NCBI GenBank assembly: GCA_973895155.1
Contig: OZ316891.1
Span: forward strand, 8,185,875-8,249,874
Reading direction: 5' to 3'
Origin: Marsupella aquatica
Lineage: Eukaryota; Plantae; Marchantiophyta
Length of the DNA: 64,000 nt
In this document: piece after piece, positions 2,174 through 49,647 of the stretch
Numbering within the stretch: the first letter of the stretch is position 1
Layout: every line of letters starts with the position of its first letter
Program-made: the position numbers and the translations under genes
The notes under the pieces: model-generated
Databases searched by the model: none
What the model saw: the letters and a program-made list of their open reading frames with translations, nothing else
What the model was told of the DNA's origin: nothing

Positions 2174-5100
2174 GGGCGTCCTACCTTTTTGGGACTTTTT
2201 GTTCTCGGGCACATATATTCTCAGAACCCTGTTGTTAGTTTCCAGAGATAATAATAATTATTATTTTGAGATAATTATTGCCCAGACATGGAGTACTTCC
2301 CTGTGTGGGTCGGCCCTGATTGGGTCAGACTTGTGTCTTTCAGTTTTCGTATTATTCGTGGCATACTTTGAGCCAGATGTAGTCCAAATCTGTGGGTAAC
2401 TTGTGGCTTGGCGCTGGAGAATCTTCGTAAAGGGTACGAATTGTGAGGTTGTCCGACTGCCTTGGTGTCTCTGATTTATTGATTTCTCTTCTTTTCAGTG
2501 GACCGGCTCCATGATTTGTGACCTTTACTCCTTCAGGTCAAACAGTCAGGTATCTCGTTAGTTGTCTCGCATGATTTCTTTCTTCTCTGTAGTGACAGAA
2601 ATTTTTTCTCTTTAGGACCTGTAGTGTTATTACTTAATTAGTAGTGTTATTACTAGTTTAGTCCTACACTAGGATGGATAACATTCCTTCCTTGTTTTCT
2701 TCACCTTTAGCGTTACAGGTTCACTTGAATGTGGTACTTTGCTGGGGCCACCAGCTCACCTTAGCCACCTTGGAAAAAACACATTGAAAAATAGACTTGC
2801 AAGGACAACAGAGCTGTAGGGTACTAAGATGGTTGAGTGTGGAACAATGGAGAGTTGGAGAGATTGGGAGTTGCGGAACTCGACTACCTTAACACTTAGC
2901 TCCGGCATTGTTGACTCCGATGCCAAGTTCCCCTATGGTCCAGGCCCAGAACGGCCATCCGGGGAGGACTTAGCATGAGGAGACTTGTGGACAATGGGCA
3001 TGGCACCAGCAAAGGCAAGGTGCTAAGTTGGTTGGTGACACACACTAAGGACTTAGACTAGCTAGCTAAGGGCTGGTCGGGTAAGGGGAAAGGGCTGGAC
3101 TCAAAGTCAACCATCCGGACCCCCAGACAAACTTTGAGTTCTGAAGGCTTGAGTCAGAGCTCCTGTTGGGCCCAAGGCAAATGGAGTTTACTCCATGTGC
3201 AACAGACGCTTGGGGCACAAGTTACGGCCCGACCCAGGTTTGGCCGATTGGGGGTCCCGGGCGATGATGGGTTCTGAGGGCCTAGGCATGAGCACTGGGT
3301 CGGCCCGATCACAACGGGCTAAGGCACTCTGCCTACGGACCCTAACTAGAAAGTTATGGGTATATGCAATTGGTGGTGTGCCCAGACATGCGGGTTGGGG
3401 TCCAAGTGGGGGGCCAAAATTTGGGGACCAAAGCAGGTCCTGGGTGGCAGGTCTCCAAAAGCATATATGAGGGCGAGCCAAAGTCGTGAGCCGCAACGAT
3501 CACGCCACTAAGGGAAAATGTCATACGGAAACAACGATAATTTCCCAACGGGAAGTCCATTGGAGGACTTTGTGGGTGCGTTGGAAAGCTCTCAAGGAAG
3601 ACTACATCCTCCTTAGCTCAGTTTGGTCTAGGGGTGCCATGGGTTCTTGGGGTTTGCGGGGGCTATACCGCCCACTTGCCAAATCTTGCCGAAATAGTAG
3701 CCAAACCTCGTTCAGTCTCCTAAGGGAGCTTGCGTTGGGGAAACAAGGCCAAGTAGGCATGGAGGTTGAGTTCCAAGGGCAATTGGCTCCTAGGCTATCA
3801 ATGAGGTGAGAGTCAAGAGTTGGTTGCTAAAGTCGGGGCCATCCTGGTCCTGGCGTGTTGGGACAAGCTTTAAGACAAGTTACGCTATTTGGGCGTTTCA
3901 AAATTGTGGAAGCCTCTCGTCGATCCTTCATTCCTTTCTCCCAGCAGGTGTGCGGTTCTTGTCCTTGGGGTAGGGTGGTCAGTTGGTGATGGATAGGTAC
4001 AAGGGAGAACCGGGCCGCACCCAAAGAGGGTTGTTGTAGACGGACAATGGATGTCAACTTTGGTTCCAGCTTATGGCAATGGGAGGACCTATCGCTAACC
4101 TACTTACCAATGTTTGTGGGCTTGATTTAGAATGCTAGACTTGGGGAGATCTAGATCCTGTGGGTTACTTAGAGGTACTGGTTGCTTGTGCAAACAGTTA
4201 GGACCGCTGAGCGACAGTCGTGTTAGGAAGTAGGTGCGGCTTCATATAAGAGTGGTCGCAAACAGTGCAAGAGGCATCAAGTTGCTTGCTCAAGGAGTTA
4301 TGTGGAGACATTTGGGCACCAAGGGCACTTAGGCATGGGTGCTGAGATTGGTGAGGGCGTTGGGTGGCAAGGTCCACCACTCTGGATTGCAGGGGATATG
4401 GAGCAGCTGCAGGAACTACAGGTCCCACCAAGTCACTTTCAAACAAATGGGCCCACTGCATTGTCTTCCCCAGAATGCAGCACCATGGCATTGTATTCAA
4501 ATAGTGGACCAGGGTCCCTCTAGTCTTGGCCCACTATCTGAATAGTGAGCCCTGGGCATTGTATCTGAGTTTTGAATGGAGGTTTGGATTTTTTACTTGC
4601 GGCATTCATTGTGTTCAAATTTTGGCACTCAGTGGGAGACCAGGTTAGGGTGTAAGCAAGAAGCAAGAATGATAGTAAGTGAGACGCAAATTGACATCTA
4701 AGTGGTGAGATAAAGAGAAGTGTTTGGGAATGCATGTGTAGCTAATTCAAACATTAAAATTCCACAAGGGAGGGAACAAGTTTGTAATACAAACCAAGAC
4801 ATTACATATCATAAGTATCAAGTCTACTATTATCTCTTGGTAAAACAAGTAAACGTAACATATATGTTTTTATGACATAGAAGTGTTCACCATGTGAGCT
4901 ATATAGAGAGTGTAACTCTTTTAAAGTTAGCTCCATTTGAATTAACTGGTCACTATTGTCAACTCCACATTTTACATTTCCCATAAACACAAGTGTTTTG
5001 TTGCCCCAAAATAAATACACTTCTAGTTGGAAGCACAATAAACACACATAACAACGGAGGCTTGGACAAATTCACATTTGGTACCTATGAGAGTTACATA

Positions 5101-9903: not shown

Positions 9904-12699
9904 AACACGATTTCGGACCGAACGAGAACTATTTCCTCTAAACGAGAAGTGTATTTTCATTTTCCGCCGAATCTCGCAAAATCGGCAGTTTTTTCATCAA
10001 AAAACAGCAAATTTAATAATGATCAAAACCAATGAAATTCATGCTAACAAACATTCATATTATCAAGGAACAATTAGATCCGAAAAACTTTCTCCTCAAC
10101 CTCATATTCACGCTCTCCGAAGATATATGAAAGGTCTTATCTATAAATCCATATCCATGTTTCGAGCCAAGTGCGATAACTGTATCAGACTCCGGATTTG
10201 AGCCATGAAAGCTCCGACCCAATCTCAGTTTTCTCAGTTTTTGGATATTTACCAAAAATATTTTACATCATAGTCGATAAGAATTACTGCACGGTTCGTC
10301 AAACTTACCTTGTAGTTACCTCCGCAATTGACCAGTTACCTCTGCAAGTGACCATAGTCAACATGCCATTCTTTCAACAGCAATGCGCAGTCCGATAAAA
10401 TTATCGCGAAAACTACGGGCGACAAAAATACTAGTCGATAATACTAAGATCCTTCGGTTCATTGGTTAAATTTCAAAATTCCTATCCAGATGAAGAAAAC
10501 TCTTCGCAATACCAACATCAGATAAATTTATCGCTTCAATTTCAAAATTGCAACTTCCATATGAAGGAACCACTTTTGCAATACCAACATCAGATAAATT
10601 TATCGCTTCAATTTCAAATTGCAACTTCCATATGAAGGAACCACTTTTGCAATACCAACATCAGATAAATTTATCGCTTCAATTTCAAAACTATATAATT
10701 TTGCCACGATGCACGTGTGAGAATGAAATTGGAAATCCAAGAAATATACCTTTTTTTGCTATTTTGTCGTTTAGGGTGACAGCCAATCAAAAGTGGACAC
10801 GTGGGCCAACCCCTCAACAGACACTATAAAAGGGCTACAATTTTCATCCAACTTTACAGTACCTTGTATAACGGGCTGTGAAGCCAATGCACTTGTCAGC
10901 TAATCGTCCGAAGAGGCGCAAACAAATACACTCTGGACCACACAACCCGAAGTCAGGGGAGGCAGAGTCAATTACATTCAAAGTGTTTCTTTACAAGCTC
11001 TTCTCGAGCAAACCTTAGAGCACCCAAAATTGACTAGAGGAATGAGGAGTGCGATAAATTTATTGGATGTTCGCAGCAATGCCTCATCCACTCAGACTCG
11101 TCCATGCCATGCAAGAATTGTCCGCTTCCCGCTTTCTCCAAGATTTATCCAAACTCTACGAAACTGATCTAACTGCTCATACGGAAAGCACCCAAGCATA
11201 TCTATGGGAGGGAGGAAATGAGTTTCCTCTCGGAAGACCCTAGCAATATGTAAGTTTGAGAGAAGGTCGGCATTAGGAATGTTTGCGAGCATTTTGTTTA
11301 TGTCATTGATCTCACGGACTGCATATTTCAATAGCGCCCAAAATCGTGTACCAACAACAAGATGGTTCCATTTCTTTGAGGTGGCTCCAAGACAAATGAT
11401 TGTTCTCATTCGAGTCAGTCGTTCTTATGGTAGAAGTTTTAGGTCAAGGCCAAGGTGTTCATCTTGTGTGCAAGACAAGGCTAGGAGGGGCCAAATGTGA
11501 GATCCAACATCAGATAAATTTATCGCTTAAATTCCAAAACTACAAACATCCATATGAATAAAATCTATTTTGCAATACAAACATAGATATATTTATCTCT
11601 CAAATTTCAAAACTACGTAATTTTGCCAAGATGCACATGTAAGAATCAAATTGGATATTCAAGAAATATACCCTTCTCTGTTATTTTGTTGTTTAGCGAG
11701 ACGGTCAATCAAAAGTGGCCACGTGGGCCAACCCCTCAACAGACACATACTATAAAAGGGCCACCGCCGATGAGTTTTTGGCGTCATTATCTAGAGTAGA
11801 GTTTTTTTTGGAGTTGTGTTCTTGGAGCAACATTTTGTCTGTTGAGCCATTCATTTTCCCTGATTGAGGGGAGGTATGCAAAGCCCCATAGTGTCTCGAA
11901 TAACCATGTCTCAATCAGACACAGATTCACCTTCAAGTTTAGTTAAAATCCTCTCCTAATATTGTCGCTTGCTCTTTGCCAAGTCGCATCCCTAAAGCTC
12001 TACCTCTCGCATAGTAGATTGTGCCTGAAATCTTTGACTTTGATTGGGATTCTGATGCAAGTTCTGGTCCTAAGCCCAGTTCTTACTATGTGTTGCCTAA
12101 TAAACCTGAGAAGCATCGTCTCTTGAGCGTTCCATCGCCAAGAATTGAGAAAATTCAATCCCACGTTTAGGTCTGAGACGTCGCTTCAGGCCATCTATCC
12201 CGAGTTATGGAGAGGGTATTCGGCAATTGATATGCGTATCGCACTCGGCATTCGAGTCGCCACATTCAACTCACATTCAATGACGGATTTTTCAGTCTCC
12301 GGGTGAGGAACATGAAGCAAAAAAGAGTAAGTTTCTAAATCTGTGTGTAGTACCCGATAATTTTATTGGGTTGAGGATTCCAATGCTTCTTCTTTGGTAA
12401 TTGTGTGTGAATATATTGTTTGAATAGTTTGAATACTTATCCCGATAAATTTATCGCTATCATGGTTTAACATTATGGTAATCGAATCAAGTGTTTGAAT
12501 ACTGAACCCGATAAATTTATTGCTATCAATCCAGCAAAGTTCTAAACTTTTTTATTATTGAGGAAAATTCTCAACATTGCTAAACGAGCATCGGAAGGCA
12601 TAAGCATTGGAGAGGGAGAAGTTAGCAAAGCACCGGAGCAAATATAATAAGAGTTCTGAGAAATATTTGGAACACGAATTCGGACCAAAGATAACATGG

Positions 12700-13460
12700 A
12701 CAACATAACACCACTATTAGACTTGGCTCATTGAGGGCTTCAAAATGAATCCAAACATGACTATCTATAAACACCCACAAACAACATGTCAACCATTCTT
12801 AGTTTTGTAACTTTCTATAATGATAACACAATATCAATCTTTGGAATACAAACAATGATAAATTTATCGCAACTTTCATTCCTCTTTATATTTTAGGTAC
12901 TCTTGGTTGGTCTCTCAAGGTTAGATCCATTAGTACAGGGTTTTGAGGAACAAATCTTGTCCCTATTATTATCTTGTATTGAAAGATAATATGGAAAACA
13001 TAACGCCACTAATAGATTGGGCTCATTGAGAGCTTCAAAATGAATCCAAACATGACTATCTATAAACACCCACAAACAACATGTCAACTATTCTTAGTTT
13101 TGTAACTTTCTATAATGATAAAACAATATCAATCTTTGGAATACAAATAACGATAAATTTATCGCAACTTTCATTTCTCCTTATATTTTGGGTACTCCTG
13201 GTTGGTCTCTCGAGGTTAGATCCATTAGTACAAGATTTTGAGTAACAAATCTTGTCCCTATTATTATCTTGTATTGAAAGATAATATGAAAAACATACCA
13301 CCATTTTTAGATTGGGCTCATTGAGGGCTTCAAAATGAGTCCAAACATGACTATCTATTTACACCCACAAACAACATGTCAAGCATTCTTAGTTTTGTAA
13401 CTTTCTATAATGATAAAACAATATCAATCTTTGGAATACAAACAACGCTAAATTTATCAG
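12700..13460. repeat. About 295-bp tandem repeat, roughly 2.5 copies, within the TIR element
   Basis: GGCTCATTGAG.GCTTCAAAATGA.TCCAAACATGACTATCT recurs near 12725, 13020 and 13314. Confidence 0.85.
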
Positions 13461-14478
13461 AACAAAAGTTTATCGAACAAAGGAATCCAGAATGTGATAA
13501 ATTTATTGCATGTTTGCTGGAATCTTGAATCCAACAGAGGAATCACTACAACACTATCGGCCGGTTTTGCGAAGACAATCTCATCGCAACTAACAAGCCC
13601 CTGATTCTCATAATTCTGGCTATTGCGAACATACGCGCATCGCACCCCCTTCGCACTTTGCGAACCTAATAACTTCGCACGCGGACCATCGCAATGGCAT
13701 CGCAACATCATGGCAAACTGAGAAGCTGAGAGGTTCGCAATATTCAATACTTCTGCGATCCATTATACGTCGCATAAGGTTCGCAAACATACACGCACAT
13801 GTCCCGCGCGGGCGTCAATATTTGAGACGGATTTACCATCGCATCATATTTGCGATTGATACTGGTTCAATTGTTTTGATGGGGATTGTATGACAAAGAG
13901 CGATACCGGTGATTTCAGAAGTTTGTGAACGGTTGCGATTAGGAAAGTGCGATCCTAGAAGTATCACAAAAACCCGACATATTTGGATCTGAAGTTCTAA
14001 AGTTAATTGACTCAAAAAGTGCGACGCCTTGGGGTTAATATTGTGCGATGGGAATGAGTTCTTAAAGGGTTCGCAAAATTATGATCACACAGGATTCAAT
14101 ACATTATTTGCGAGGGATTTTCCTTGGAACCCAATGTGGAAGGCAAAATTGTTGTTTTATAAAATGGAAAAGCATGAACAAAATGATAGGGCTTCAAAGA
14201 ACCCTATACATGGACAAGAGGGGGGAAATATCTGATGCTAGGTCCGCCCTTCTAAACCTATGCTGCCTCTTCCTACCCTAAGCTCCGGCATGACAAGTCA
14301 CTCTCATGCATGTATCTCTACAAAATAACTAGAATGGGCTCTTGCGGCTCCTCTTGGTTGGCTTCTTGGCTGGCTTCTTGCCCTTATCCTTCCGGGGATC
14401 CTGTTGGTGACGGGTGCGTGATGGCCGTCGGCGCTCCTGCTCCTGCTCCTGCTGCTCCTCTGGCTCCTCCTGCCCCTC

Positions 14479-16375
14479 TTACTCCTCCTCCTCATCCTCA
14501 GGGTCCTCCTCCTCCCCCTGGTCATCAACGTGTGCTGATGACACACGACTACCACCACTACCACGGTGGGAAGAACCTACCTCACGACTACTCCCCCCCC
14601 GAGCACCACTAGTACCAGGAGTAGCCCCCTCATCGTCATCACTACTGGTCACATCAGCACCCGACCCCTCAGGCTCATCCGAATCCTGCATCCATTACAT
14701 ATCATTAGTTTCCGCAAGACATAAAGGGTCACTCACAATGTTCGCATGCTAATCATATGGTTCACACTTAGACACTTACAGTAGCCAACTCGGCATCTAC
14801 CATCGCAAAGAGGTACTTTCGTCCATGCTCTATCGCCACCTCAATATGCTTTTTTGATATCTTCCTTTTGTACCTCCGATACTGCCATGCATAAAACCAA
14901 TTAAAATTGGTTAAATTTGCCCTTAAGCATACCCTATAGCCACAAGTGACGCCTAAATCCTCAACTACTAAACATGACCCAAAAAAATTTTAAAATTCAA
15001 ATTTGCGAACCTATAAGCATAGCAACTTGCGAACCACCTTTTTTTGCGAAGGTGTTGCGATGGAGTTTGCGATGCGCATTTGTTCGCAAAGGCATCGGAA
15101 AATTGAAATGGAAAAAGTCTATGATAGACTTTGCGAGGGGTTTGCGAACAAATACGCATCGCAACACCTTCGCAAACTGTGTTCCCGAGAGTTTTTAAAA
15201 ATTTGCCAGAAATTCTAAGTGTCAGAGTTGCCCTAAACTAGTAACCAAGCAAGCATGCACAACAGCAAGAACCTTCGGGGATGTCATTCACTTGCATTGC
15301 ACAACTCTGAAAGGAATAGAGAGGTTAGGGAGGAGCAAGAGGCACTCACAAAGTGTGACTTGAGGCCGGGGAGCCCGCCTTGACCCAACTTGTGGACTGG
15401 ATTGGGGGTGGATTTCACTCGTTTGGCTGCATCTGTGAAACGCTTGGGTGGCTTTCCCTCCTGGTCGGCCACCTTCTGCATCTCAGCTACCTTCTGCTCA
15501 AGTGGCTTCAGGTCGTGGTCAGGGGGGAGCTTCCCGGCCTCCTTTGCTTTCAAGGCTCGATCTAGATTGCCCTTCCACTCTTCCAACTCGTGAGCTGCCT
15601 TAATTTGCACCTCAATCTTGTAAAACGAATTCCAGATGTCCTCGGTGAAGTGGAGGGGTCTGCGCAAGTTCCTGTATGATCTCAAGTCTTTCAGGTGGGC
15701 TCTAATCTTCATCCTGTCATGGTATCGCATTTGAGACATAGAATTTGAAATCTTATCTGCCAACCATTGCTCATCTATGTCAGGCCCATTGCGAAATGCA
15801 TCCTTGATTTGGTTGATGACCCTCTTTCGCTCTGCCTTCTCAATCTTCCCCCACTGCATGCCTCATGAGAAATTGCTTGTGATAATTTGCTTGATTGTGC
15901 TCTTAGCCCCTGCATATGCTAGCTCAGTTGGAGTCCCACTCGTCTCCAAGGCAATGAATGGAAGTTTTTTTCTTGCTTCCTCTTTCTGACGTTGCTCCTC
16001 CCTCTGTTTTCGAATTGAATCTCTCTCCTCTCTTCTCTTCTGCTTCTCTAGGGCTTGAGGAGAGGCAACTCCCGACTTAGTTCTTTCCTCTCTCTTCCTT
16101 TTTTTCTCTCTAGTCTTCTCTTCAGCTGCGGCCCTCTCCTCCCCCTCTCTAGTAGCTTGTCCTGCTACAATCCCAGTTTGCAAAACCTGTCCAAGAATGG
16201 CACTCAAAGAGGCAAGCCCTGCTGGAGAATTGAGATTCACTTCTCCCAATTGTGCAACACTGAGATGTTGGGCCACTAAGTCTGCCCAGGCATTCTTCTC
16301 TTTCTCTGGATTTCCCCCATTGCCACTACCACTACCACTACCACCTTGCCCTCCACTCCCCTCACCGGTAGCCAT
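14479..16375 (-). pseudogene. CACTA accessory (TnpA/Ptta-like) gene; predicted exons 16375-15350, 14881-14780 and 14685-14479; one in-frame TGA at 15863-15865
   Basis: Two in-frame ORFs separated by a single stop; charged coiled-coil segment; RPLHFTEDIW...HKLGQGG resembles the Ptta/En/Spm (Transposase_24) signature; phase-0 GT-AG junctions; acidic C-terminal tail. Confidence 0.6.
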
Positions 16376-16789
16376 AGCTCCCCTCTCTCACAGTCTCCCT
16401 CGTACTGTTGCGCGCGCCCCGGCCCTTCTCGTCTCGCTCAAAAACTGAAATGAGCCCAAATGCGAGCTCCCGCCAATGTTTACACCGTTCAAAAACGGGT
16501 TTGCGATGACATACACATGGGAAACTGCAAAGTCCGCGCCCTCGCAAATAGTCTCGCAACTTGCGAGGCACTTCCGAATCTATTCCCTTCGCAAAGCCAT
16601 CGCAACCCGCAGAAGACCCAAAAAATTGTTCTCGGCCTCTGTTTTTGCGAAGCAAGTGCGAAGGTCGTAGGTTCGCAAAAATATTCTCTAACTTGTGAAA
16701 TAATTTGCGAGGCAGGTCTTATCGGTTTAGGGTTGGAAAACACTTTGGGGTGTCAAACGGCTATTAAGGTTTGTCAAACGACATTTAAG

Positions 16790-17665
16790 GTATGTTAAGT
16801 GCCCATAAGTTAACATGGAAGGGGTGTCAATGGATGTTTGGGTTGTAAGGATAACTAGAATATAAGTTAACAAAGGTTTGGGTTTAATTAAAGGTTAGGT
16901 TTATATTTGGTTTTAATCTAGGAGTATTTGGTTTAATTAAGGGGGTTAAAACTTGGGTTAGGTTGGAATAAAAGGGTTGGGTTTAAATTAATGGGTTTGG
17001 CTTAGGGTTCAAGGTAGAGGTTTGCATTAGGTTGTGAGTAATTACAGGGGTTGGGTTTGGTTTTAGTTGAGGGGTTGAATTGTGGTTGTTTTTTAAAGGG
17101 ATTGGGTTTGGTTTTTAGTTGGGGGGTTTAATTGTGGTTTTTTTAAAGGGGTTGGGTTTCTAATGTAAGTGTTTGGGTTGGGGTGTAACATGATATAGGG
17201 TTGGATTTGGTTCTAATTGAGGGGGTACAATTTTTGCTTAAGTTTTAAAAAAGGGCCTCAATTTAGGGGTTAGGGTGAAGTTTAGAATAACTATAGGGGT
17301 GGAGGTTGGCCTATATAGGTAAAGTAAGGTGTAGATAGGGTAAGAGTTTTATATGTAATTGGGGGATTTGGGTTGGGTTTAGGGTAAAGGTTTGAAATTT
17401 TAATGAGGGATTTGGGTATTGGTTAGGATAAGGGTAAGGGTTTAGGGTGCTTGAGGGATTTGGGTTAGGTTTTAATGAAGGGTTTCATTTCATGGTTTGG
17501 GTTTAGGGTAGGGGTTTGGGTTTAGGGTAAAGGTTTGAATTTTTAATGAGGGATTTGGGTATTGGTTAGGATAAGGGTAAGGGTTTAGGGTGATTGAGGG
17601 ATTTGGGTTAGGTTTTAATGAAGGGTTTCATTTCATGGTTTGGGTTTAGGGTAGGGTTTGGGTTA
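16790..17665. repeat. G/T-rich, telomere-like (TTTAGGG/GGTTTGGG) low-complexity tract with a 143-bp tandem duplication (about 17375-17665)
   Basis: The plus strand is strongly C-depleted, with many GGTTTAGGG units. AGGGTAAAGG recurs at 17381 and 17524. Confidence 0.85.
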
Positions 17666-18096
17666 CTTATATTTATTTGTCTATCTCATTAACATGGAGA
17701 GGAAAACTCTTTGGCGTTGTAGGGCACTTCCCCATGTTTTTTAAAGTTTTGGCTAATGCATGATAATGCCTTGCGAGAGCCCGGGCATCTGAAAGGTATA
17801 ACATTTTCTCATGCATTTCTAGTCATTGCTGTAAATATGGAGGGTTACAATCTATCATCCTTTTTTTCTGGTTCACCATAAGGCATGGCTTAATTCATTG
17901 TATATTGGCAGATTTTCCCCTCCTTCCAGATTTGGTTCATGAAATTTGAGCCACAAGATCCGTCAAGGCATTGCTAAGCCTGGGTCTCATAAAGGTATTT
18001 TTCTGTCAATTCTTTTTAATATGTTTAGGTAGGGATTATCAATGATGGTTTTGGTGAAGTTTTTACTAATCGCCTTCCAATTGCTATACTTGTCAG

Positions 18097-18330
18097 ATGT
18101 CTTCATCCTCTACAACTTCCACCACATCAGATTCCTCTTCCGATGAAGAAAGTCATCCTCCTCCTCAACCTGAACCAACCGTACGTCGACCTAGTGGTCC
18201 ACCACGCCAACTTTGTGGTTGTAAAAAATGTGTGGGGATGGTTGTCCAAAAGTCATATGTATGTGCGGAGCACATTGCTCGATATGGCCAACATCGAGGT
18301 CTTACACCGGGAGCTTCTTCATCCCGTATG
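18097..18330 (+). CDS. CACTA first coding exon: Ser-rich leader plus transposase-associated Cys/His domain
   Basis: ATG follows an AG acceptor; CGCKKC...C..HIARYG resembles the En/Spm transposase-associated domain; phase-0 donor ATG|GTGAGT at 18331. Confidence 0.7.
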
Positions 18331-18442
18331 GTGAGTTGTAAACTTACTGTGATTTCCATTTTATTTTGTAAATCTTGCTAGGTAGCATAAAATAAAATTT
18401 GGGAGGTTCATCACACTCACTTGGTTCCATTTCTTCCTATAG

Positions 18443-19257
18443 GTATCCAGTAGGCCTACACCCACTACACCAACACCCTATGTTCCCTCACAAGGAGTTC
18501 TAGATGCTATAGGCTCGGCACTTTCACAAGCTTTTCGTTTAGTGGCAGCAGGGCAAGGTAGTGTTGGGACAATTAAGGGTGACGGTATTGTTACAAGAGG
18601 GAAAAAAAGTCAAAAAGACAGCCTAGAGGGGAAGTGGATCAGTACACTTGTAGGGTTGATGGTAGATGGGGCCCTTGTACCTTCACAGGGAAGTGTGTTC
18701 CTATCATAAAGGATTGGAATCCGGAGTGCCTTGGTTTGCCATGTGATATAACCTATGGTGAGGAGATAGAAGTTTGGGGAAGACGTTGGGTTGTCAAGAG
18801 TTCGACCCTAGGGGAGAGGCATGGGTATGGGATTTTCTCTTGTCAGGACATTATTGTGGATGATATGGGTGGAAAAGGGCGCTCTTCAGATGGACCAACG
18901 TTGTTCCCGTATGGTGGACCCATTTACAAGAGGAGACATTTGAACATGATCCTTGTTCAACACCCTGAGTGGAAGACTTATGCATTGGACATGGATACTT
19001 TTGATGGTTGCACCAGAAAGTATTGTGACCAGCGTATAATTGATGGTGATCCCATCCGTAGTGGGAATATTGCCGGTTTCATCAACAGTACTGTGGGGAC
19101 CCGGCCTAAGCGTAGGAAAAACTGTGAATGGGTTTTTGTTGATGGTCCCCCTCCAGCCCCTTATGGGCAGAGATATCATCATGACCATTGTCTAGTTGTA
19201 GCTAATAGGACCATTCTGGTTGGAGAGGAGTTGTTTACACATTATGAATGGGATTAG
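18443..19257 (+). CDS. SET-domain (lysine methyltransferase-like) exon inside the CACTA; -1 frame offset at the A7 run 18602-18608
   Basis: ORF 18634-19257 has the four SET motifs in order: VKSSTL..HGYGIFS.QDI, PYGG, IDG...GNIAGFINST...NC, and VVANRTILVGEELFTHY. Phase-0 acceptor TTCCTATAG| at 18442. Confidence 0.8.
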
Positions 19258-19407
19258 GATTACTTTAGGGACATGTATTATACGTTCATCGTATGTGAAC
19301 GTATGTTTTGTAATGACATGTTCTTTTTATATTGTTAATAATATGTTTCGAGCACTACTATATTTGGCGTTAATTTCATTGTGAATACTTTATTGTATTT
19401 TCTATAG

Positions 19408-22400
19408 AATGTGCGGCCTAGTCAAGATATATTGCCAAGGAGGTTGAGAGCTACATATCAAGAAATGGGCTTGCCACAAGACGGGGAAACATCATCAGCA
19501 GATTCCTCATCAAGTGACAATGATAATGACAGTCCAGATGAAGGGGCACCTCGGACAGATTATGAGGTCATGCAAGACCAAGAGTCAGCCATGGATGACT
19601 TCATGACAGATTGGTTTGGTGTAGACATTGGTGGTGAAGGAGGTGTCCCACCCAATGAAGGAGACCCTCCACCAAATGTTGCACATGATCCAAGCCTCAA
19701 CGTACACCTGAAGGACAAAAACAATGGGAAGAAGCTGAGGCACATGCTAGAACACCTATTTATGGGGGTGCTCGTTTGAATAGACTATCTGCCATCTTGG
19801 CATTGATGAATCTTCAGGCAAAACACAAGGCAAGCAATGCGCTACTATCGGATTTGTTTGCAATTTGCCATGATCTCTTGTTACCTAGTGAAAATGTGTT
19901 GCCAGGAACTTGGAAGGAGGCAAAGAGGGTTCTATCATCCATTGGCATGGAATACCATATCATTCATGCTTGTGTGAATGACTGCATTCTCTATCATGAG
20001 ACCAATGTCAGCGCAACTGAGTGTCCAATTTGTCAAGAGCCTCGATATGAAACCAACATGTTGACCTCAAAGGTGCCTAGAAAAGCTGTTCGTTGGTTTC
20101 CTATTATTCCTCGATTGTTGCACATGTACCGATGTTCTGACTTGGCAGAATTGATGGTATGGCATAAGACACATCGATCAGAGGCCGGTGTCATGCGGTT
20201 GCCAGTTGATTCCCCTGCTCACAAGCATGTGGAGTCACAATGGCCAGAATTTGCACGTGACCCTCGTCATGTGAGGTTGGGGTTGGCATCAGATGGGGTA
20301 AGCCCACACTCCCTTGGAGGGAAAGGGCGCCCTACTTCGGTTTGGCCGGTGGTTGTTATGAATTACAACCTTCCCCCATGGTTGTCCATGAAAAAGGGAT
20401 TCTTATTGCTATCATTGATTATCCCAGGTCCATCTAAGGTAAAAAACATGGACACCTACTTGGCGCTCTTGGTTGGGGAACTCCATAAATTATGGGGGGG
20501 TGTATGGGCATATGATGGTCGGACAACTACAGGAGGGTTACCACGTGTCTTCCAATTGAAGGGAATCATTATGTGGACCATGCATGACTATCCAAGTGAG
20601 TGGTATGGATTTGTATTTTTTTCATGTATTGGAGATCAAGTTTGTTTGGAAGGAAGTCCCTCTTTAATTCTATGTACATGAACTTTTCAATTCCTTTGAC
20701 TCTAATTGAGAATGTTATTTTGTGAGCAGGGTTTGGGTTTGTTTCTGGGTTCCAAACTCAAGGGTACAAGACATGCTCCACTTGTGGTCCAAGCCTTCAC
20801 GATATGGCCAAGTACTCAAAATGGCTGCACAAGATAATCTACCTTGGTCATACCAAGTTTCTTCCACTTGGGCATCACATGAGGTCTGACCCCCTTTTGT
20901 TTTCAGACTTTGACATGATCAATGGTGATGAGCGTGAGATACCTAACCGCACAACATTTTCGTATTGGAAGTCCATAGCTGATAGGGTGGCAGACCCTGA
21001 AGATGCCATGGGATTTGATGGTAGTGGATTGACAAGGTGGGGTATACTGGCCACTTTGCCCTATTGGCCTGAGTTGAAGATTCATCACTTGTTAGACCCC
21101 ATGCATATAGAGGGAAATGTTGGGAAGGCTTTGATCAAGCACTTTTATGGGGAAAAGAACATTAATTTTAGGGAGGCATGCCAGGATCTAGAACGACATC
21201 CAGATGTATGGATAACAGTTGATGAATCCACAGGGATGGAACATCGTCCTTCAGCTCCATGGGTTTTGAGTGTTGGTGAAAGAAGAGAGTTTCGACAACG
21301 CATAGGGCAGATGCGGTTTCCTACAGGCTATGGTGCCAATCTACGTAAGGCTTTTGGGATGGAGGACAGTCATAAATGGCCAATGTATCTCAAGACACAT
21401 GACTATCATCGTTTACTACAACATATACTTCCTATGGCAATCATAGGTTTGGGGAGTGAAGAAGTGCAAGACGCCCTTTGGTCACTGGGCACTTTGTTGA
21501 GATGGATATGCTCAAAGAAAATATATGAAGAAGAGATACCATGGATGGAGGTATTGGCAGTAGAGGTGGTATGCAAGTTGGAGAAGGCCCTCCCTCCTTC
21601 CTTCTTTGATTGTCAGGTGCATCTTCTCGTTCATCTTGTGAGGGAGGTTGCCATTGCCGGTCCGGTGCATTGTAGGTGGATGTATTGGCTGGAAAGGTAT
21701 ATGGCCGTGTTAAAGGCTTATGTACGGAACCGTGCACGAGTGGAGGGGAGCATGGCAACTGGATACTTGGCAGCTGAGAGTATGTTTTATTGTAGTAACA
21801 TCTTAGCTACCATTGATCCTAGTTTTCCACGCACTTGGATGGAAGAGAGGGAAGTGGAGGAGGACCGTTTAACAGGTGCAAAAAAAACACGCTTACTAAC
21901 CGCAGTGGAGTTGACACAGGTTAGTACTTTCATGTTGAGTAACAGCAATGTGATGGAAGATTGGAGAGAGTTTTATGAGGATGCAAAGAGGGAGAGTCGT
22001 CGCCCAAGGATCTTTCCAAAGTTCCTTGAGTATATGAAGGAGAAAGTACTTCAGTTGGATGCTATGGTGGCCCAAGGTGAGAATGTATCACATTTTCCAG
22101 ATATGACTCCTGAGGTTCGAACAATTGTTCATGGTCCTTTAAGACTTGTTCAAACCAAAACAGCAATGTGGACACAAGGGAGGCATTTCAGGATTTCTGA
22201 CCTTGATGAGAAGAGGGGAAGAACTTTTGATTGTGGAGTTCAAGGGCAGTTTATGCAAGATTCACAAAGTAGCCGTCATGACACTAATGTGATCAGAGAT
22301 GTGGTGCCTCACTATGGGAAGATTGAGGAGATCTTGATCATATCCTATGATGCCGATTCCAAATTTGAAGAGTATGTCTTCAAGTGTAAGTGGTTCAAAA

Positions 22401-22675
22401 TTCACCTGGTTGGTGATAATCGCACGGTACTTCTTGATGAGTGTGGGTTTACTCGACTGAAGACATCAGCAACTAGCTTTCAACCATCTCATTGGCAAAT
22501 ATCTGAACCATTTACATTCCCAAGTCACCTTGAGCAGTGTTTCTATATTCCGTACCCACTAGACCTAGAGTGGTCAGTTGTTATACCGTATGTGCCACGG
22601 TCCCGTTCCATTATCTCGGAAAAACCTGACGTTATTATTGTGTCAAATGGAGGCAAGGATGAGGACCAGGTTTGA
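19408..22675 (+). pseudogene. CACTA Tnp2/TnpD-type transposase; exons 19408-20595 and 20730-22675; frameshift near 19690
   Basis: Motifs IHACVNDCILY, CPICQEPRY, RHVRLGLASDG, YNLPPWL, WTMHDYP, LDPMHIEGNV, LKTHDYH, PPSFFD, RWMYWLER and FKCKWF; GT-AG intron 20596-20729 restores DYP-xFG...CSTC. Confidence 0.92.
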
Positions 22676-24184
22676 TGCACTAGTAGTAAAACTTGTTGTG
22701 GGCCCAGAATTTGACCCTAAACTAACTATCATGGTTTTATTTATATTAACATATTACTTTTCTTCTTTTGTTTTACAAACACTTAATTGGACTTTGAAAT
22801 TTCATCTCACTGTTATATATGCAACCTTAGCCGTTTCCAAAGCTATCCTCATGCATGCCACCTTTTTGAAAACCCTAGCTGTAACCTAAACACATGCATT
22901 CTCCATCTTGTAAAGAAACTCTCTCAAACATTTCCATTCTACAAAATTTTCAAACAACTCTCTTTGCAAAACATTTTCAAGCTTGTCAAGAAGCAACTTC
23001 TGAACACTTTGTGAATAACACACCATCGGTAATTGTGATGCCAATGTGTTCTCAACTTTGCGAATCAACTGGATTCGGTAACTTGCGACTATTTATGCTT
23101 CACAATATTGTGCGAAGCTAATAGGTTCACAATATATATTTGAGTACATTATTATCGCTAAATTATGAAACAAAAGAGATCCAAATGCAGTCGCGATGGT
23201 CGCGGATCCACAAATACTTTGCGAGATGAATAGTATCTGAAAGAGTTACGAATTCAATCCGATCTCAAACAAATTGCGAGGTATTTAGCTTCGCAACACC
23301 ATGTTGCGAACCTGTGAGCATGGTTTATTGTGATGCGTGTTTGATCACAAAATATCTTAAGTCGATGACATCGCAAGACCATCCTGGCGTCAAAAAAAGC
23401 TTCGCAAAAGGGGCCAATATGTAGTAGTGAATGCAAACTATGATAAAATTGTCGCATGTTTGTTGAAATCCTGAATCTAACCAAGGAATGCAGACTACGA
23501 TAGTTTTATCGCATGTTTGCTGGAATCCTAAATCCAACAGAGGAATGCGGATTGTGATAAATTTATCGCATGTTCACTGAAATCCTCTCACATTGATAAT
23601 GAATGAATAACAAACCTTACATAATTGATAATACTCAAACCGGAATGCAAGTTCCGATAAATTTATCGGGTTTTTGAGAGAAAGATTCAAATCTCCTTAT
23701 AGGAATGTAAGACTTGATAGGAGTTTGGTATTTTCTTTAAGACAAATGTTGTTTGATCTGACGATCAAACTAAACTTTTATGGCCATCTCACTCCTCCTT
23801 ATATAGGGAATGCTCTAACCATGGTTACTATTTCCCACAAACCATTTTTGAAAGTTACAAATCTAAAACCCAATGCACGTATCGCTGCCTAAATTCTTGC
23901 GATGATGCAATGTCCAGAACTGATGTTTTTTTGATTTGACATCCATTTTATTGGAGTTTGCATTGCCTTAGAAAAAAATAGAGTCGGGCTAAACGAGAAG
24001 TGTGTCACACTTCTTGGTCGGTCCGAAATTGTGTTGCCATGAGGATGCAATAAGTTTATTGCACTTTGCATTCACCTAGAAGACATGACCCCATCAAACA
24101 CCTAAGCCCTGAATCCATCATAGGAATGCGCGCTCTGATAATTTTAGCGGATGTACTTTGAACTATCTGACTTCAATCCATTAA

Positions 24185-24497
24185 AGGAATGAAGACTCCG
24201 ATAAAATTATTGGAGTCTCAAATAATCTTCAATCAATCACAGGAATGGAGACTCCGATAAATTTATCGGAGTCTCAAATAATCTTCAATCCTTTAGATGA
24301 ATGAAGACTCCAATAAATTTATCGGAGTCTCAAATAATCCTTAATCCATTACATGAATGGAGGCTCCGATAAATTTATCAGAGTCTCAACTAATCCTCAA
24401 TCCGTCAAAGGAATGAAGACTCCGATAAATTTATCGGAGTCTCAAATAATCCTTAATCCGTCAAAGGAATGAAAACTCCGATAAATTTATCGGACCT
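24185..24497. repeat. About 59-bp tandem repeat, 5-6 copies, each with a palindromic core
   Basis: Perfect 28-bp palindrome GAGACTCCGATAAATTTATCGGAGTCTC at 24248-24275; variants occur in neighbouring units. Confidence 0.85.
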
Positions 24498-25153
24498 TGA
24501 ATATAGTCTATGGAATGAATGCTCATTCCTATAATTCTATTTGATGTTCTTCAAACATATTCAATTCTTCGAAATAATGTAACTGAGGAATGCAGAATGC
24601 GATAAATTTATCGCAATCCGCTCGGGTCAGGACATTGACACCAAATGACAAGTCAACATTACATAGATGTTACTCAAACTGGAATGGTAGTTCCGATAAA
24701 TTTATCGGGTTCTCTAGAGAAAGAGTCAAGTCTCTTGTGAGGAATGTAAGACTTGATAGGAGTCCAGCATTCACTCTGAGTGAGGTGTTGTTTGCTCCGG
24801 CAAAAATAAACTTTTCATGGGCAGCCCGCTCCTCTTTATATAGGGGATGCTCTAACCATGGTTACTTTTTCTATTAACCATGGTTACATTTGCACTAACC
24901 CGGGTTAGTGCATGGTCGACCCTCGATTACGTGGTTCGGACCAATTTACTCGTAGTTTGGACTTTTTCACAGACCGAATGTAAAACCCGATGCACGTATC
25001 GCTCCCTGCATTCCCGCGGCGATGCAATGGAGGAAAGTGGCGTTTCAGAGAGTTTTTGCCAGTTTTATCGGTCATTGCATTGCCTTAGAAAAAAAATGGG
25101 ATTGGGCTAAACGAGAACTCCGACACACTTCTCGGTCGGTCCGAAATCGTGTT

Positions 25154-30303: not shown

Positions 30304-30880
30304 CAACCTTCTTTGCTGGCACGGTGGTCACCCTCAAGCAAGGTTAATCAATTCCACTCATTCATCAATCACGGTATTCCATAAGTGCCAACAGCCAGCT
30401 ATAGCCGAGCCCCTTGCACTTACCTAGGTTTCGCTCTTTGGTATTCTTGGTCGCAGTCCGTCGGATACAAAATCTGACGGTTGATGTACAACAAAAACCT
30501 ACGTCGAGAGAGAACAAAGAAACTGGCTTCACGTGTCAATTACTACCTGTAGAGTATAATTGGTGGCCCAGCGCCGATACGGTATTTCGACAGCGTACTG
30601 ATTTTCCCTTTTGCGCCAATCAGGTGGCATCTCCACTACAGTTGAGGCGCCGTACATCCCAACACCGTTTCTTTGTTTTTCCGGTCCGCAACTCCACGAG
30701 GGTTTTTATACTCCACCCTTCGAAGCTCGAGCACTGTGTGTGACGATCGATCTCTCTGTGCTTCCGTTCTTTCCTGCATCTCTTGTGTCGTCGACTTCGG
30801 GAGCTCCTCGAACGATCTTGGAATCTGAGCTCGAGCTGAGGAGAGGAGAGGAGAGGGGTGAGAGATCGATTGAGGCGAAA

Positions 30881-32872
<1,992 letters not shown>

Positions 32873-36967: not shown

Positions 36968-37951
36968 CTAGCCCTCACTATATTCGTTGACATGCCCATG
37001 ATATCTGTCACCCCTCACGGCATGGACATCCAAGATAGCGTTGATGTCCTTCGCCTCCTCATCTGTAAGTGTGATATCGTTGGTATTTTCGTTCACTCTA
37101 GCCTCAGTAGTAGCCCCAGGAATTGGAATAATGACGGGCATCCCCGGCTTCTCGCTGAGATACTTCACCCACGCAAGGGCCAGCTGCGGCAACGTGCACC
37201 CCTTCTTCTTTGCGATCGCCTCCACCATCTCAACCAACTTCATATTCTTCTCCAGAACATCAGGTTGATACTTGGGATAGTGACGCTCTTCTGGGGAAAG
37301 ATCCTCGTACTTTTTAACCTGCCCCGTCAGCGCACCACGACCGAGTGGTGAGTACGCCACAAACGGAATCCCGAGTTCAGCACAAGTGCTGAGAACACCA
37401 TTCTCGATGTTGTCGATGGCCCAGAGCGACAGCTCTCCTTCCACAGCAGCAATCGGAGCCACGGCAGCTGCTCTCCGAATTGTCTTGGCACTCACTTCGC
37501 TCAGGCCGATAGCGCCAATCTTCCCCTCATCAACCAGCTTCTTCAAAGCGCCCACTGTCACCTCAACTGGAGTCTTCGGATCCACGCGCGCACACTCGAA
37601 AATGTCTATCGCCTTCGTTCCGTCCAAGACCCTCAAACACTCTTCCACGCTCGCCCGGACATTCTCCTCACTCCCATTCGGCTTCAACCCGGCGCCCATA
37701 CCACCCTTGATGCTCAACACCACCTTTTCGGCCGCTTCGGGATGCTCCTTGAAGTAAGCATTCAGCACATGGCAGGAATTCCGATCCGGAGGCCCGTAGA
37801 ACTCTCCCCCATTCCAGCAATTGGCGCCTCTCTTCAACGAGGCCGTCATGGCCGCGAAGGCCTGCTCTAGCGATGGGGGCTTCTCCCGCGCTGTCAGCCC
37901 CATCAGGCCGTAGCCTGTGTGGCCTACTGGTTTCTCGACGAGAGACGGCAT
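36968..37951 (-). CDS. Aldo-keto reductase, fungal pyridoxal-reductase-like, copy 1 (327 aa, intronless)
   Basis: Motifs GYGLMGLT, WNGGEFYG, VVLSIKGG, IDIFECARVD, GKIGAIGLSE, AYSPLGRG, QLALAWV and IIPIPGATT..RV.EN; ATG at 37951. Confidence 0.9.
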   Translation of the reverse strand: MPSLVEKPVGHTGYGLMGLTAREKPPSLEQAFAAMTASLKRGANCWNGGEFYGPPDRNSCHVLNAYFKEHPEAAEKVVLSIKGGMGAGLKPNGSEENVRASVEECLRVLDGTKAIDIFECARVDPKTPVEVTVGALKKLVDEGKIGAIGLSEVSAKTIRRAAAVAPIAAVEGELSLWAIDNIENGVLSTCAELGIPFVAYSPLGRGALTGQVKKYEDLSPEERHYPKYQPDVLEKNMKLVEMVEAIAKKKGCTLPQLALAWVKYLSEKPGMPVIIPIPGATTEARVNENTNDITLTDEEAKDINAILDVHAVRGDRYHGHVNEYSEG

Positions 37952-37974
37952 TTTCAATTCGGTGCTGCTCGTGA

Positions 37975-38270
37975 ATGTTCAACCGATCATCGACGATTTG
38001 TGAACTCTATTTCCTCTAGTGGGAGCTCGACCTTCCCTTGACGGCATGCACTTTACACAACAGCGATCGTTCCTCAGTGGAGTGGAAAGCAAAGTGCCAA
38101 TTGGTTACACAAAACCAATCAACCGATCATTGACGACTTGTGAACTCTATTTCCTCTAATGGGAGCTCGACCTTCCTTTGACTACATGCGCTTTAGACAA
38201 CAGCGATCAATTTCCTCAGTGGAGTGGAAAGCAAAGTGCGAATTGGTTCCCCAAACCAATCAATCTCCTC
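37975..38270. repeat. About 140-bp tandem duplication in the upstream region of AKR copy 1
   Basis: AACCGATCAT.GACGA.TTGTGAACTCTATTTCCTCTA.TGGGAGCTCGACC recurs at 37981 and 38121. Confidence 0.75.
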
Positions 38271-42171: not shown

Positions 42172-43155
42172 CTAGCCCTCACTGTATTGTTGGACATGCC
42201 CATGATATCTGTCACCCCTCACGGCATGGACATCCAAGATCGCGTCAATGTCCTTTGCCTCCTCATCTGTAAGTGTGATATCGTTGGTGTTTTCGATCAC
42301 TCTAGCTTCCGTAGTAGCCCCAGGAATTGGAATTATGACGGGCATCCCCGGCTTCTCGCTGAGATACTTCACCCACGCGAGTGCAAGCTGCGGCAACGTG
42401 CACCCCTTCTTCTTTGCGATCGCCTCCACCAGCTCAACCAACTTCATATTCTTCTCCAGAACATCAGGTTGATACTTGGGATAGTCACGCGCTTGTGCGG
42501 GAAGATCCTCGTACTTCTTAATCGTCCCCGTCAGCGCACCACGACCGAGTGGTGAGTACGCCACAAACGGAATCCCGAGTTCAGCACAAGTGCTGAGAAC
42601 ATCATTCTCCATGTTGTCGATGGACCAGAGCGACAGCTCCCCTTCCACAGCAGCAATCGGAGCCACGGCAGCTGCTCTCCGAATTGTCTTGGCACTCACT
42701 TCGCTCAGGCCGATAGCGCCAATTTTCCTCTCATCAACCAGCTTCTTCAAAGCGCCCACTGTCACCTCAACTGGAGTTTGCGGATCCACGCGAGCACACT
42801 GGAAAATGTCTATCGCCTTCGTTCCGTCCAAGACCCTCAAACACTCCTCCACGCTCGCCCGGACATTCTCCTCACTCCCATTCGGCTTCAACCCGGCGCC
42901 CATACCACCCTTGATACTCAACACCACCTTTTCGGCCGCTTCGGGATGCTGCTTGAAGTAAGCATTAAGCACATGGCAGGAATTCCGATCCGGAGGCCCG
43001 TAGAACTCTCCCCCATTCCAGCAATTGGCGCCTCTCTTCAACGCGGCCGTCATGGCCGCGAAGGCCTGTTCTAGCGATGGGGGCTTCTCCCGCGCTGTCA
43101 GGCCCAGCAGGCCGTAGCCTGTGTGGCCTACGGATTTCCCGACCAGAGACGGCAT
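42172..43155 (-). CDS. Aldo-keto reductase, fungal pyridoxal-reductase-like, copy 2 (327 aa, intronless)
   Basis: Close paralog of copy 1 with an intact 984-bp ORF; ATG at 43155. Confidence 0.9.
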   Translation of the reverse strand: MPSLVGKSVGHTGYGLLGLTAREKPPSLEQAFAAMTAALKRGANCWNGGEFYGPPDRNSCHVLNAYFKQHPEAAEKVVLSIKGGMGAGLKPNGSEENVRASVEECLRVLDGTKAIDIFQCARVDPQTPVEVTVGALKKLVDERKIGAIGLSEVSAKTIRRAAAVAPIAAVEGELSLWSIDNMENDVLSTCAELGIPFVAYSPLGRGALTGTIKKYEDLPAQARDYPKYQPDVLEKNMKLVELVEAIAKKKGCTLPQLALAWVKYLSEKPGMPVIIPIPGATTEARVIENTNDITLTDEEAKDIDAILDVHAVRGDRYHGHVQQYSEG

Positions 43156-47948: not shown

Positions 47949-48933
47949 CTAGCCCTCACTATATTGATGGGCATAAGCAGGATATCTATCACCCCTCACG
48001 GCATGGACATCCAAGATAGCGTCAATGTCCTTCGCCTCCTCATCTGTAAGTGTGATATCGTTGGTGTTTTCATTCACTCTAGCCTCCGTAGTAGCCCCAG
48101 GAATTGGAATAATGACGGGCATCCCCGGCTTCTCGCTGAGATACTTCACCCACGCGAGGGCCAGCTGCGGCAACGTGCACCCCTTCTTCTTTGCGATCGA
48201 CTCGACCAGCTCAACCAACTTAAGAGTTTTGTCCAGAACATCAGGGTGAAACTTGGGAACGTGACGCGCTTGTGCGGGAAGATCCTCGTACTTCTTAATC
48301 GTCCCCGTCAGCGCACCACGACCGAGGGGTGAGTACGCCACAAACGGAATCCCGAGTTCAGCACAAGTGCTGAGAACATCGTTCTCCATGTTGTCGATGG
48401 ACCAGATCGACAGCTCCCCTTCCACCGCAGCAATCGGAGCCACGGCAGCTGCTCTCCGAATTGTCTTGGCACTCACTTCGCTCAGGCCGATACCGCCAAT
48501 CTTCCCCTCATCAACCAGCTTCTTCAAAGCGGCCACTGTCACCTCAATTGGAGTCTTCGGATCCACGCGTCCGCACTCGAAAATGTCTATCGTCTTCGTT
48601 CCGTCCAAGACCCTCAAACACTCCTCCACGCTCGCCCGGACACTCCTCACTCCCATCCGGCACCTTCCCCGAGCGCGCCCCACCACCCTTGATGCTCAGC
48701 ACCACCTTTTCGGCCGCTTCGGGATGCTCCTTGAAGTAAGCATTCAGCACATGGCAGGAATTCCGATCCGGAGGCCCGTAGAACTCTCCCCCATTCCAAC
48801 AATTGGCGCCTCTCTTCAACGAGGCCGTCATGGCTGCGAAGGCCTGCTCTAGCGATGGGGGATTCTCTCGCCAGGTCAGGCCCATCAGGCCATAGCCTGT
48901 GTGGCCCACTGGTTTCCCCACAAGAGACGGCAT
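47949..48933 (-). pseudogene. Aldo-keto reductase copy 3, frameshifted by a 2-bp deletion near 48643
   Basis: 985-bp span against 984 bp in copies 1 and 2; GSEE-(AA lost)-VRAS; N- and C-terminal halves lie in different ORFs; retains GLTWR. Confidence 0.85.
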
Positions 48934-49647
48934 CTTCAATTCTGTGCTACTCGTGAATGTCCAACCGATCGTCGACGATTTGTGAAATCTATTTCCTTTT
49001 GTGGGAGCTCGTCCTTCAGTTGACAAGATGCAATTTCGACTGCAGCGAACAATTTCCTCCAACTACAATAGTGGAACGCGAAGTGGGGATTGGGTCGACA
49101 AGAGCAATCAATCTACTCGTTCAAGACGAAATTGGAATTTTGAGCGGTAAGACAGGACCACATTTCGGGATGAAGGGGACAGCTTCACAACCAAATGGGG
49201 GCACGTTTTATACCCCAATTGCGCTTTTGAGAGTACAGTGAACCGCGGATAAGTGCATCGTGAATAAGTGCAGTCCGTGACTTAGTGCAGGCCTTTCGTG
49301 TTGTCCCCTAATATTAGTGGCATTTACTTTGTAAATGCACCAAAAAAATGCACTTTGCATATGTGGAAGCCTACCCTCACTAAATGACAATACTTAATTG
49401 CATTCCGTCTATAAGAGTACATATGCATTTACCAGTTAGTGGATATAGTGCACAAGATGCTTTTATTGATAAGAGGTTGAAAGAAATAGAGACATATGCT
49501 TAGTAGACCCTTCTGGAAAAAGTTTGCTTAATCAACCCCCTCAATACTTTTCTCCAATCTGGACCGTTGATGGACCTTTCGATCTCAGATCTGGACTGTT
49601 GATGGACCTTTCGATCTCAGATCTGGACCGTTGATAGACCTCAGGGG

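Follow-up and report, generated by a model that had tools for sequence, protein, structure and literature searches.

Maize En/Spm and Antirrhinum Tam1 are CACTA transposons in which one alternatively spliced unit gives two products, encoded by tnpA and tnpD, one reading frame lying in a large first intron of the other (PMC2613891, PMC8195511). The tnpD product is reported to be low in En/Spm (PMC2613891). The first open reading frame (ORF) of CACTA elements opens with a transposase-associated domain, ahead of Transposase_21, DUF4218 and DUF4216 (PMC8978399). Alternative splicing of CACTA elements and transposon-borne SET genes are already known separately. The element described here lies in a window of 64,000 nucleotides (nt) of Marsupella aquatica (Marchantiophyta; GenBank assembly GCA_973895155.1, contig OZ316891.1, positions 8,185,875 to 8,249,874, forward strand), to which all coordinates refer. 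It is a complete CACTA element (13544-23429, 9,886 bp) in which, according to the sequence comparisons below, a SET exon is probably nested within the transposase gene, the whole forming one unit that would yield two proteins by 3' splice-site choice. Like En/Spm and Tam1, it would be a CACTA element with two products from one alternatively spliced unit and with one frame in a large first intron of the other.

Putative shared exon, acceptors and reading frames

The shared first coding exon (18097-18330, on the forward strand, as are all parts of this unit) has 78 codons, which encode a Ser/acidic stretch and a CxCxxC...C..H module, and ends in a phase-0 donor at 18331. The first-pass annotation had recognised this Cys/His exon with its CGCKKC...H motif and phase-0 donor, and both were recovered, the exon end reading ATG/GTGAGT. 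It had also placed two acceptors downstream; each is present as it had reported and lies behind a pyrimidine-rich tract. Acceptor 1 (TATAG/GTA at 18442) closes a short intron of 112 nt (18331-18442) and leads to the SET terminal exon (18443-19257), which encodes a Pro-rich linker and the SET domain and ends in THYEWD and a stop. Acceptor 2 (TATAG/AAT at 19407) leads in phase 0 (NVRPSQDILPRRLRATY...) to transposase exon A (19408-20595), which contains an acidic linker and the start of Transposase_21. A phase-1 intron (20596-20729), found in the same place in two related loci (L053, L059), separates exon A from exon B (20730-22675), which holds the rest of Transposase_21, DUF4218 and DUF4216. 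The Pfam scores (134.9 bits for Transposase_21, 115.6 for DUF4218 and, slightly short of the cut-off of 30.6, 28.5 for DUF4216) identify a transposase of the TnpD type. The SET stop at 19255-19257 is followed by A/T-rich sequence, as had been noted (73% A+T over the next 150 nt). This spacer (19258-19407) is presumed to serve the SET message as 3' untranslated region (UTR) and cleavage region, and to be the 3' end of the long intron as well; it is 136-146 nt long in six related loci and about 220 nt in L011.

Both downstream exons had been described as open in phase 0, which does not hold for the window copy. The reading from 18443 meets a stop after 88 codons, the one from 19408 runs for 123 codons to a stop at 19779, and the SET ORF (18583-19257) and the transposase core (19689 onwards) are both out of frame with the respective phase-0 readings, each exon being one base short, near 18601 and 19693. 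Near-identical copies on contigs of four DNA runs carry one extra base at each of these two positions, in all of the depth in run X1 and in part of it in X2 and X3. Since these contigs carry the missing bases, the family is intact and the window copy, or its assembly, damaged. The five sequencing runs examined are DNA-like; their contigs cross the short intron, and there is no GT..AG joint among the matches listed.

A scan with the shared exon gave 67 metagenome loci, mostly of one family, here called Sphagnum-type for its matches to named Sphagnum proteins, together with a third family (L011). These copies have about 60-80% protein identity to the window element, and loci on long enough contigs have the same order of divergent gene, shared exon, SET and transposase. 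All loci whose match reached the exon end (49/49) have the donor GT in phase 0. Conservation of both acceptors, which had been proposed as a check, was found: acceptor 1 is kept in 27 of the 34 loci that reach the site and absent in two rearranged copies, and acceptor 2 (TAG/AAT) stands at the same place in all seven loci with a transposase start, L011 ending on the same word. The short intron measures 111-118 nt in seven related loci. Across related families the three splice sites are found at corresponding positions of the protein, with unrelated sequence on their intron side, and on this comparison their placement is more than chance.

In the window family the first in-frame ATG of the SET exon is at 18865, inside the domain and 14 codons beyond the conserved GYG motif, and a complete SET domain therefore needs an upstream coding exon. 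Annotated Calypogeia and Sphagnum gene models join the Cys/His exon to the SET exon. A hidden Markov model (HMM) of the exon detects, ahead of SET in three Riccia-type models and a Logan protein, all of them distant homologues, a similar module that scores 14.9-24.7 bits, whereas 20 shuffles gave no more than 6.1. If instead the Cys/His exon belonged to the transposase alone, SET would be a nested gene with its own ATG or another leader. The Met encoded by the fourth codon of the SET exon in Sphagnum-type copies, the existence of 263-amino acid (aa) SET-only models and the loss of acceptor 1 in 5/34 loci would suit such a gene. It is nevertheless very improbable in view of the late first ATG in the window family, of the Calypogeia model P0001, which likewise has no in-frame ATG before the SET domain, of the short intron, whose length and phase are kept in three families, and of the module that stands ahead of SET in distant homologues.

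The dependence of the transposase on an upstream exon is indicated by the sequence around acceptor 2. The TAG of this acceptor is an in-frame stop ahead of the transposase exon, and ungapped identity to the other family is 30-37% upstream of the acceptor versus 74-79% downstream. Ahead of the first shared ATG the residue is kept in 15 of 19 codons (P 0.0045 if the 12 changes were placed at random), an AGT/TCT serine switch being among those kept. As the stop abuts the site and conservation at the protein level starts at the acceptor, the transposase exon depends on another coding exon upstream of it. The shared exon, with a ratio of nonsynonymous to synonymous divergence (dN/dS) of about 0.12-0.27, matches the transposase-associated domain PF13963 (Transpos_assoc) with an E-value of 0.0086 and 16.7 bits, under the cut-off of 27.7 bits, and one distant homologue matches it with E 0.031. 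In a Pfam search the transposase exons of the element contained Transposase_21, DUF4218 and DUF4216, and nothing like the transposase-associated domain. Because the Cys/His exon resembles this usual N-terminal domain, the SET terminal exon is, in the simplest reading of the sequence, placed inside the first intron of the transposase.

On a simple consensus score out of 7, the donor of the shared exon is the sole phase-0 donor-like site scoring at least 5 upstream of acceptor 2. This holds for the window and for six of the seven loci; in the remaining one, L027, no donor reaches this score, its own reading GTAAAT. A phase-0 donor inside the SET exon was considered and rejected, as none scores 5/7, and so was read-through from SET to transposase, spacer length and donor phase not being conserved. 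The SET-transposase fusions P0044, P0117, P0141 and P0145 were taken as joins made by gene prediction and not as evidence. No intron-less junction was present among the 67 loci, the single motif match (L041) being regarded as chance, and the junction pattern had no match in viral contigs, which is uninformative. A sister element with the shared exon and without SET was not found among the loci, L051 and L067 being rearranged or deleted copies; in L067 an internal deletion at 3300-3340 fuses the Cys/His exon to the late transposase and removes SET.

Strictly, the earlier description of the Cys/His exon as the first one is probably incorrect. Positions 18066-18096 resemble the 3' end of an intron, likely one in the 5' UTR, with CTAAT at 18066-18070, a pyrimidine tract and CAG directly before the ATG. 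An AG lies 5 nt ahead of the ATG in 51/61 related loci, the distance being 0 nt in the window copy. These motifs make it probable that an untranslated leader exon precedes the Cys/His exon, which would then be the first coding exon. Most Sphagnum-type copies have an out-of-frame ATG 5 nt before the ATG of the shared exon, right at the presumed leader acceptor, and this ATG could dampen translation.

The leader bears on a second alternative, in which the Cys/His exon serves the SET gene alone and the transposase starts independently at codon 8 or 20 of its exon, driven by a promoter within the SET exon or the spacer, or through an untranslated leader spliced straight to acceptor 2. The probable leader intron is in keeping with it, as are the annotated models, all of which join the Cys/His exon to SET, and the Met codons, one shared at codon 20 and one at codon 8 of a Riccia model and the Sphagnum-type family. 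Against it, acceptor 2 holds phase 0 in 7/7 loci and L011, whereas the distance from leader acceptor to ATG varies (0 versus 5 nt). Moreover, protein-level conservation begins at the acceptor, the window copy has no Met at codon 8 and the Cys/His exon resembles the usual transposase N-terminus. As an account of the element as a whole, an independent start is improbable.

Several observations count against the sharing of one exon by SET and transposase. All seven transposase codons ahead of the Sphagnum-type family's own ATG taken by themselves give a borderline P of 0.05. This family and the Riccia model, which keeps a similar peptide at the transposase start (MYPRRLRET, best score 51, next 32), have Met at codon 8, where the window copy has ATA, and in them the transposase may start without the exon. 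Of 34 loci, 5 have a mutated acceptor 1, and the match of the Cys/His exon to the transposase-associated domain is under the Pfam cut-off. Among the proteins with the shared exon, all of them gene predictions, 0/32 reach the transposase without SET in between. AATAAA is absent from the A/T-rich spacer (19258-19407) in a sequence scan. The one Sphagnum SET model found, by locus number, in the portion of the PMC9946827 expression table that was covered is nearly silent, with a value of 0.069 in one condition and 0 in seven others. The locus counts stand for non-independent events, mostly of one family, about three families having been compared at the DNA level, and on this DNA comparison the use of both junctions is probable. 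The mutations of acceptor 1 change TAG to TAA (L015, L021, L024, L053 and L055); L053 and L055 reach acceptor 2, which is intact in both.

Taken together, splicing from a shared exon is likely. One promoter between the divergent genes would give a transcript with the leader followed by the shared exon. Splicing to the near acceptor (exon start 18443) with cleavage in the A/T-rich spacer would produce a protein of about 350 aa with the Cys/His module, linker and SET domain, and skipping to the far acceptor (19408) across an intron of 1,077 nt would produce a protein of about 1,120 aa with the transposase-associated domain and the TnpD transposase. The choice between two 3' splice sites would then yield two proteins with the same N-terminal module, and a favoured near site would keep the transposase low. 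The proposal of the first-pass annotation that one Cys/His exon gives both SET and transposase is well supported by the comparative evidence; that annotation lacked the two frameshifts of the window copy and the likeness of the exon to the transposase-associated domain.

Fold, selection and possible role of the SET product

The SET domain matches Pfam SET with 25.3 bits, above the cut-off. An AlphaFold2 model from 84 sequences had a pLDDT (predicted local distance difference test) of 91.1 and a pTM (predicted template modelling score) of 0.86 and matched solved structures (Foldseek E 5e-7; Z 11.9, root-mean-square deviation (rmsd) 2.5, 133 residues aligned), the structural comparisons overall giving Z 11-12 and rmsd 2.3-3.1 across about 120-135 residues. 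An alignment of 15 sequences gave a fold with pLDDT 38 and a profile without a solved-structure match; with 84 sequences both were obtained. No SET subfamily stands out, the Z values being tied within 1 and identities being 15-26%. In the SET exon, Pfam detects no N6-adenine methylase: only SET (or transposase) was seen in the window ORF and 37 homologues.

Comparison with six loci gives the SET exon a dN/dS of about 0.15-0.19 and the transposase core one of 0.11-0.14, with synonymous divergence (dS) near saturation. The SET exon is under purifying selection. CACTA elements often capture gene pieces (PMC8978399) and the window copy is frameshifted, both of which would agree with a passively captured host fragment in the manner of Pack-CACTA, its splice sites being leftovers. 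This origin is largely refuted by the selection signal, the dN/dS values being unlike neutral decay. The exon also has the same place beside the transposase in Sphagnum-type loci and Riccia models, its homologues form their own SET family of 81 clusters and related copies are intact; the probability left to passive capture is very small.

Motif I of the SET domain (GxG) has Gly in 76/80 and 79/81 rows of the alignments, and the catalytic Tyr of the C-terminal ELxxxY is present in 67/70 rows. The usual SET motif for binding of S-adenosylmethionine is RFINH(S/C). It reads GFINST here; the Asn is present in 75/84 rows, and the usual His is Ser in 81/84 rows. This replacement, and the lack of a post-SET cysteine cluster after the SET domain, count against an active enzyme. 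The best-matching solved SET sequence (8swi/8sr6, reading NFS), which was crystallised with an H3 peptide, is also without that His. On the predicted fold and the retained residues, the SET product is fairly probably an active lysine methyltransferase.

With splicing as proposed, SET might still methylate something other than histones, for instance the transposase or the product of the divergent gene, or be a catalytically dead binder that competes with the transposase via the shared module. Such a role would be in line with the replacement of the NH-motif His in the whole family and with the lack of any histone methyltransferase subfamily that stands out. However, GxG, Asn and catalytic Tyr are held in very divergent members, and the solved SET protein with the H3 peptide shares the missing His; a non-histone or dead SET is a possibility of some weight, on the doubtful side. 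Under the preferred reading, the shared module would bring SET to the element or to the transposase complex, and histone methylation would keep the element accessible. That the module targets SET in this manner and that the substrate is a histone is, for the two jointly, plausible and somewhat short of an even chance. The full picture, a bryophyte CACTA element with a self-targeted histone methyltransferase, formed by grafting a SET exon onto the N-terminal module of the transposase and using splice choice between a chromatin writer that opens its own copies and the enzyme that excises them, is speculative and rather unlikely in its entirety.

Element borders, neighbouring genes and distribution

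The left terminal inverted repeat (13544-13574, forward strand, CACTAC...) is directly preceded by AAT at 13541-13543, and the right one (23400-23429, reverse strand, ...GTAGTG) is followed by AAT at 23430-23432. CACTA-type inverted repeat ends and a 3-bp target-site duplication (AAT) are thus both present at the borders. The two repeats are identical at 26/31 positions with one gap, as counted by eye, and at 17/31 without gaps. Left ends reading CACTACAAC/CACTACAAT occur at new flanks in 14 of the 15 related loci examined, and no second copy of the element was found elsewhere in the window. TTGCGA/TCGCAA words occur at 4.2 per kb inside the element and 0.44 per kb outside, in clusters at both ends and two internal ones, as the short, mostly subterminal repeats expected of CACTA elements.

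The divergent gene (15284-16372, reverse strand) has one stop at 15863-15865 in the window copy and probably has further exons toward 14250. Its frames are 49-63% identical in most related loci, and the protein has a charged coiled-coil-like part and a helical part. It had no significant Pfam match, including to the Transposase_24 expected of a TnpA-type protein, and no usable Atlas match; its position may suggest a TnpA-like role. The spacer between the two divergent genes (16800-17700, forward strand) is G/T-rich, with TTTAGGG telomere-like words and a 153-bp tandem duplication, and is likely a promoter, leader or intron region. Its G/T skew is strong, TTTAGGG resembles the plant telomere repeat, and the region is much shorter in the Sphagnum-type family (L034).

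The element is inserted in a repeat rich in the palindrome GATAAATTTATC (about 10500-13540 and 23430-25100), with tandem units near 24190-24500, and Copia-like retroelement frames adjoin this repeat. The window also contains an adenosylhomocysteinase gene, a plant-type host gene with an intron (30602-32531, forward strand), and three tandem aldo-keto reductase genes, apparently intron-less (36968-37978, 42172-43182 and 47949-49062, reverse strand), whose best solved match is perakine reductase (E 1.5e-48). The sequence of the latter, which we take to be fungal-like, would suit a possibly transferred gene.

The closest homologues are from Calypogeia fissa (76%) and Sphagnum (62-78%), and the SET family comprises 81 clusters at E-values up to 1e-10. 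Among 30 cluster members looked up, those with names are from Riccia sorocarpa, Calypogeia fissa and Sphagnum, with one weak Ginkgo protein, and several Riccia SET models run on into transposase. Two Sphagnum genomes contribute 90 and 44 genes to the orthogroup of one SET model, and Pseudotsuga contributes 2; this orthogroup is empty in the other 33 genomes, including Physcomitrium, Ceratodon, Marchantia and hornworts, and is listed among expanded gene families in Table S5 (PMC9946827). The window element and L011-L059 differ by a dS of about 1-1.6 with a transposase identity of 73-76%; these values and the patchy presence in bryophytes would fit horizontal transfer.

Comparison with described systems

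The literature searched did not describe a CACTA transposase that encloses a SET exon with which it shares the first coding exon; Repbase reports and bioRxiv supplements may hold such a description. If the self-targeted histone methyltransferase were real, it would be a second plant-transposon anti-silencing system beside VANC, one based on an enzyme, and would provide a function for the transposase-associated domain. Two questions, the role of transposon-borne SET domains and the binding partner of the CACTA transposase-associated domain, become testable together, the protein of about 350 aa with module and SET being suited to expression, assay and mapping on chromatin in a model bryophyte. 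For annotation, a transposon gene may be counted as expansion of a host gene family, as the Sphagnum orthogroup of one SET model suggests.

VANDAL elements of Arabidopsis with their anti-silencing protein VANC likewise, as a working model, have an element-encoded factor that acts on its own chromatin. They belong to the MuDR superfamily, the protein is unrelated, the target is DNA methylation, and function was shown there and is proposed here. SET genes are also borne by HarbingerS and MuDR elements of Phytophthora and by SET-carrying Helitrons (PMC12730594, bioRxiv 10.1101/2025.02.11.637652), as accessory genes in superfamilies and hosts other than those of the present element. Closer is the red-algal Plavaka PAG2 of the EnSpm superfamily (bioRxiv 10.1101/2025.02.11.637652), in which SET has likewise long been kept within an element. 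There it is described as part of a separate accessory gene that also encodes an N6-adenine methylase domain, and the available text does not describe an exon shared with the transposase; here, Pfam finds SET without the methylase.

Among CACTA elements, soybean Tgmt* (PMC2613891) has cDNAs that join the first 346 bp of transposase exon 1 to exons far away, so that a second product shares this 5' part. Unlike that of the present element, this second product is TnpA-like, lies downstream, uses a non-canonical junction and has no SET domain. The analogy with TnpA and TnpD of En/Spm drawn in the first-pass annotation stands as regards alternative splicing of a CACTA unit and is otherwise loose, since here there is a separate divergent gene and the second product is SET, not TnpA. 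In En/Spm and Tam1 the transposase frame lies in the tnpA intron, whereas here the SET exon would lie in the transposase intron; and tnpA of En/Spm is on the same strand, whereas the candidate TnpA-like gene of the Marsupella element is separate and head-to-head with the SET/transposase unit.

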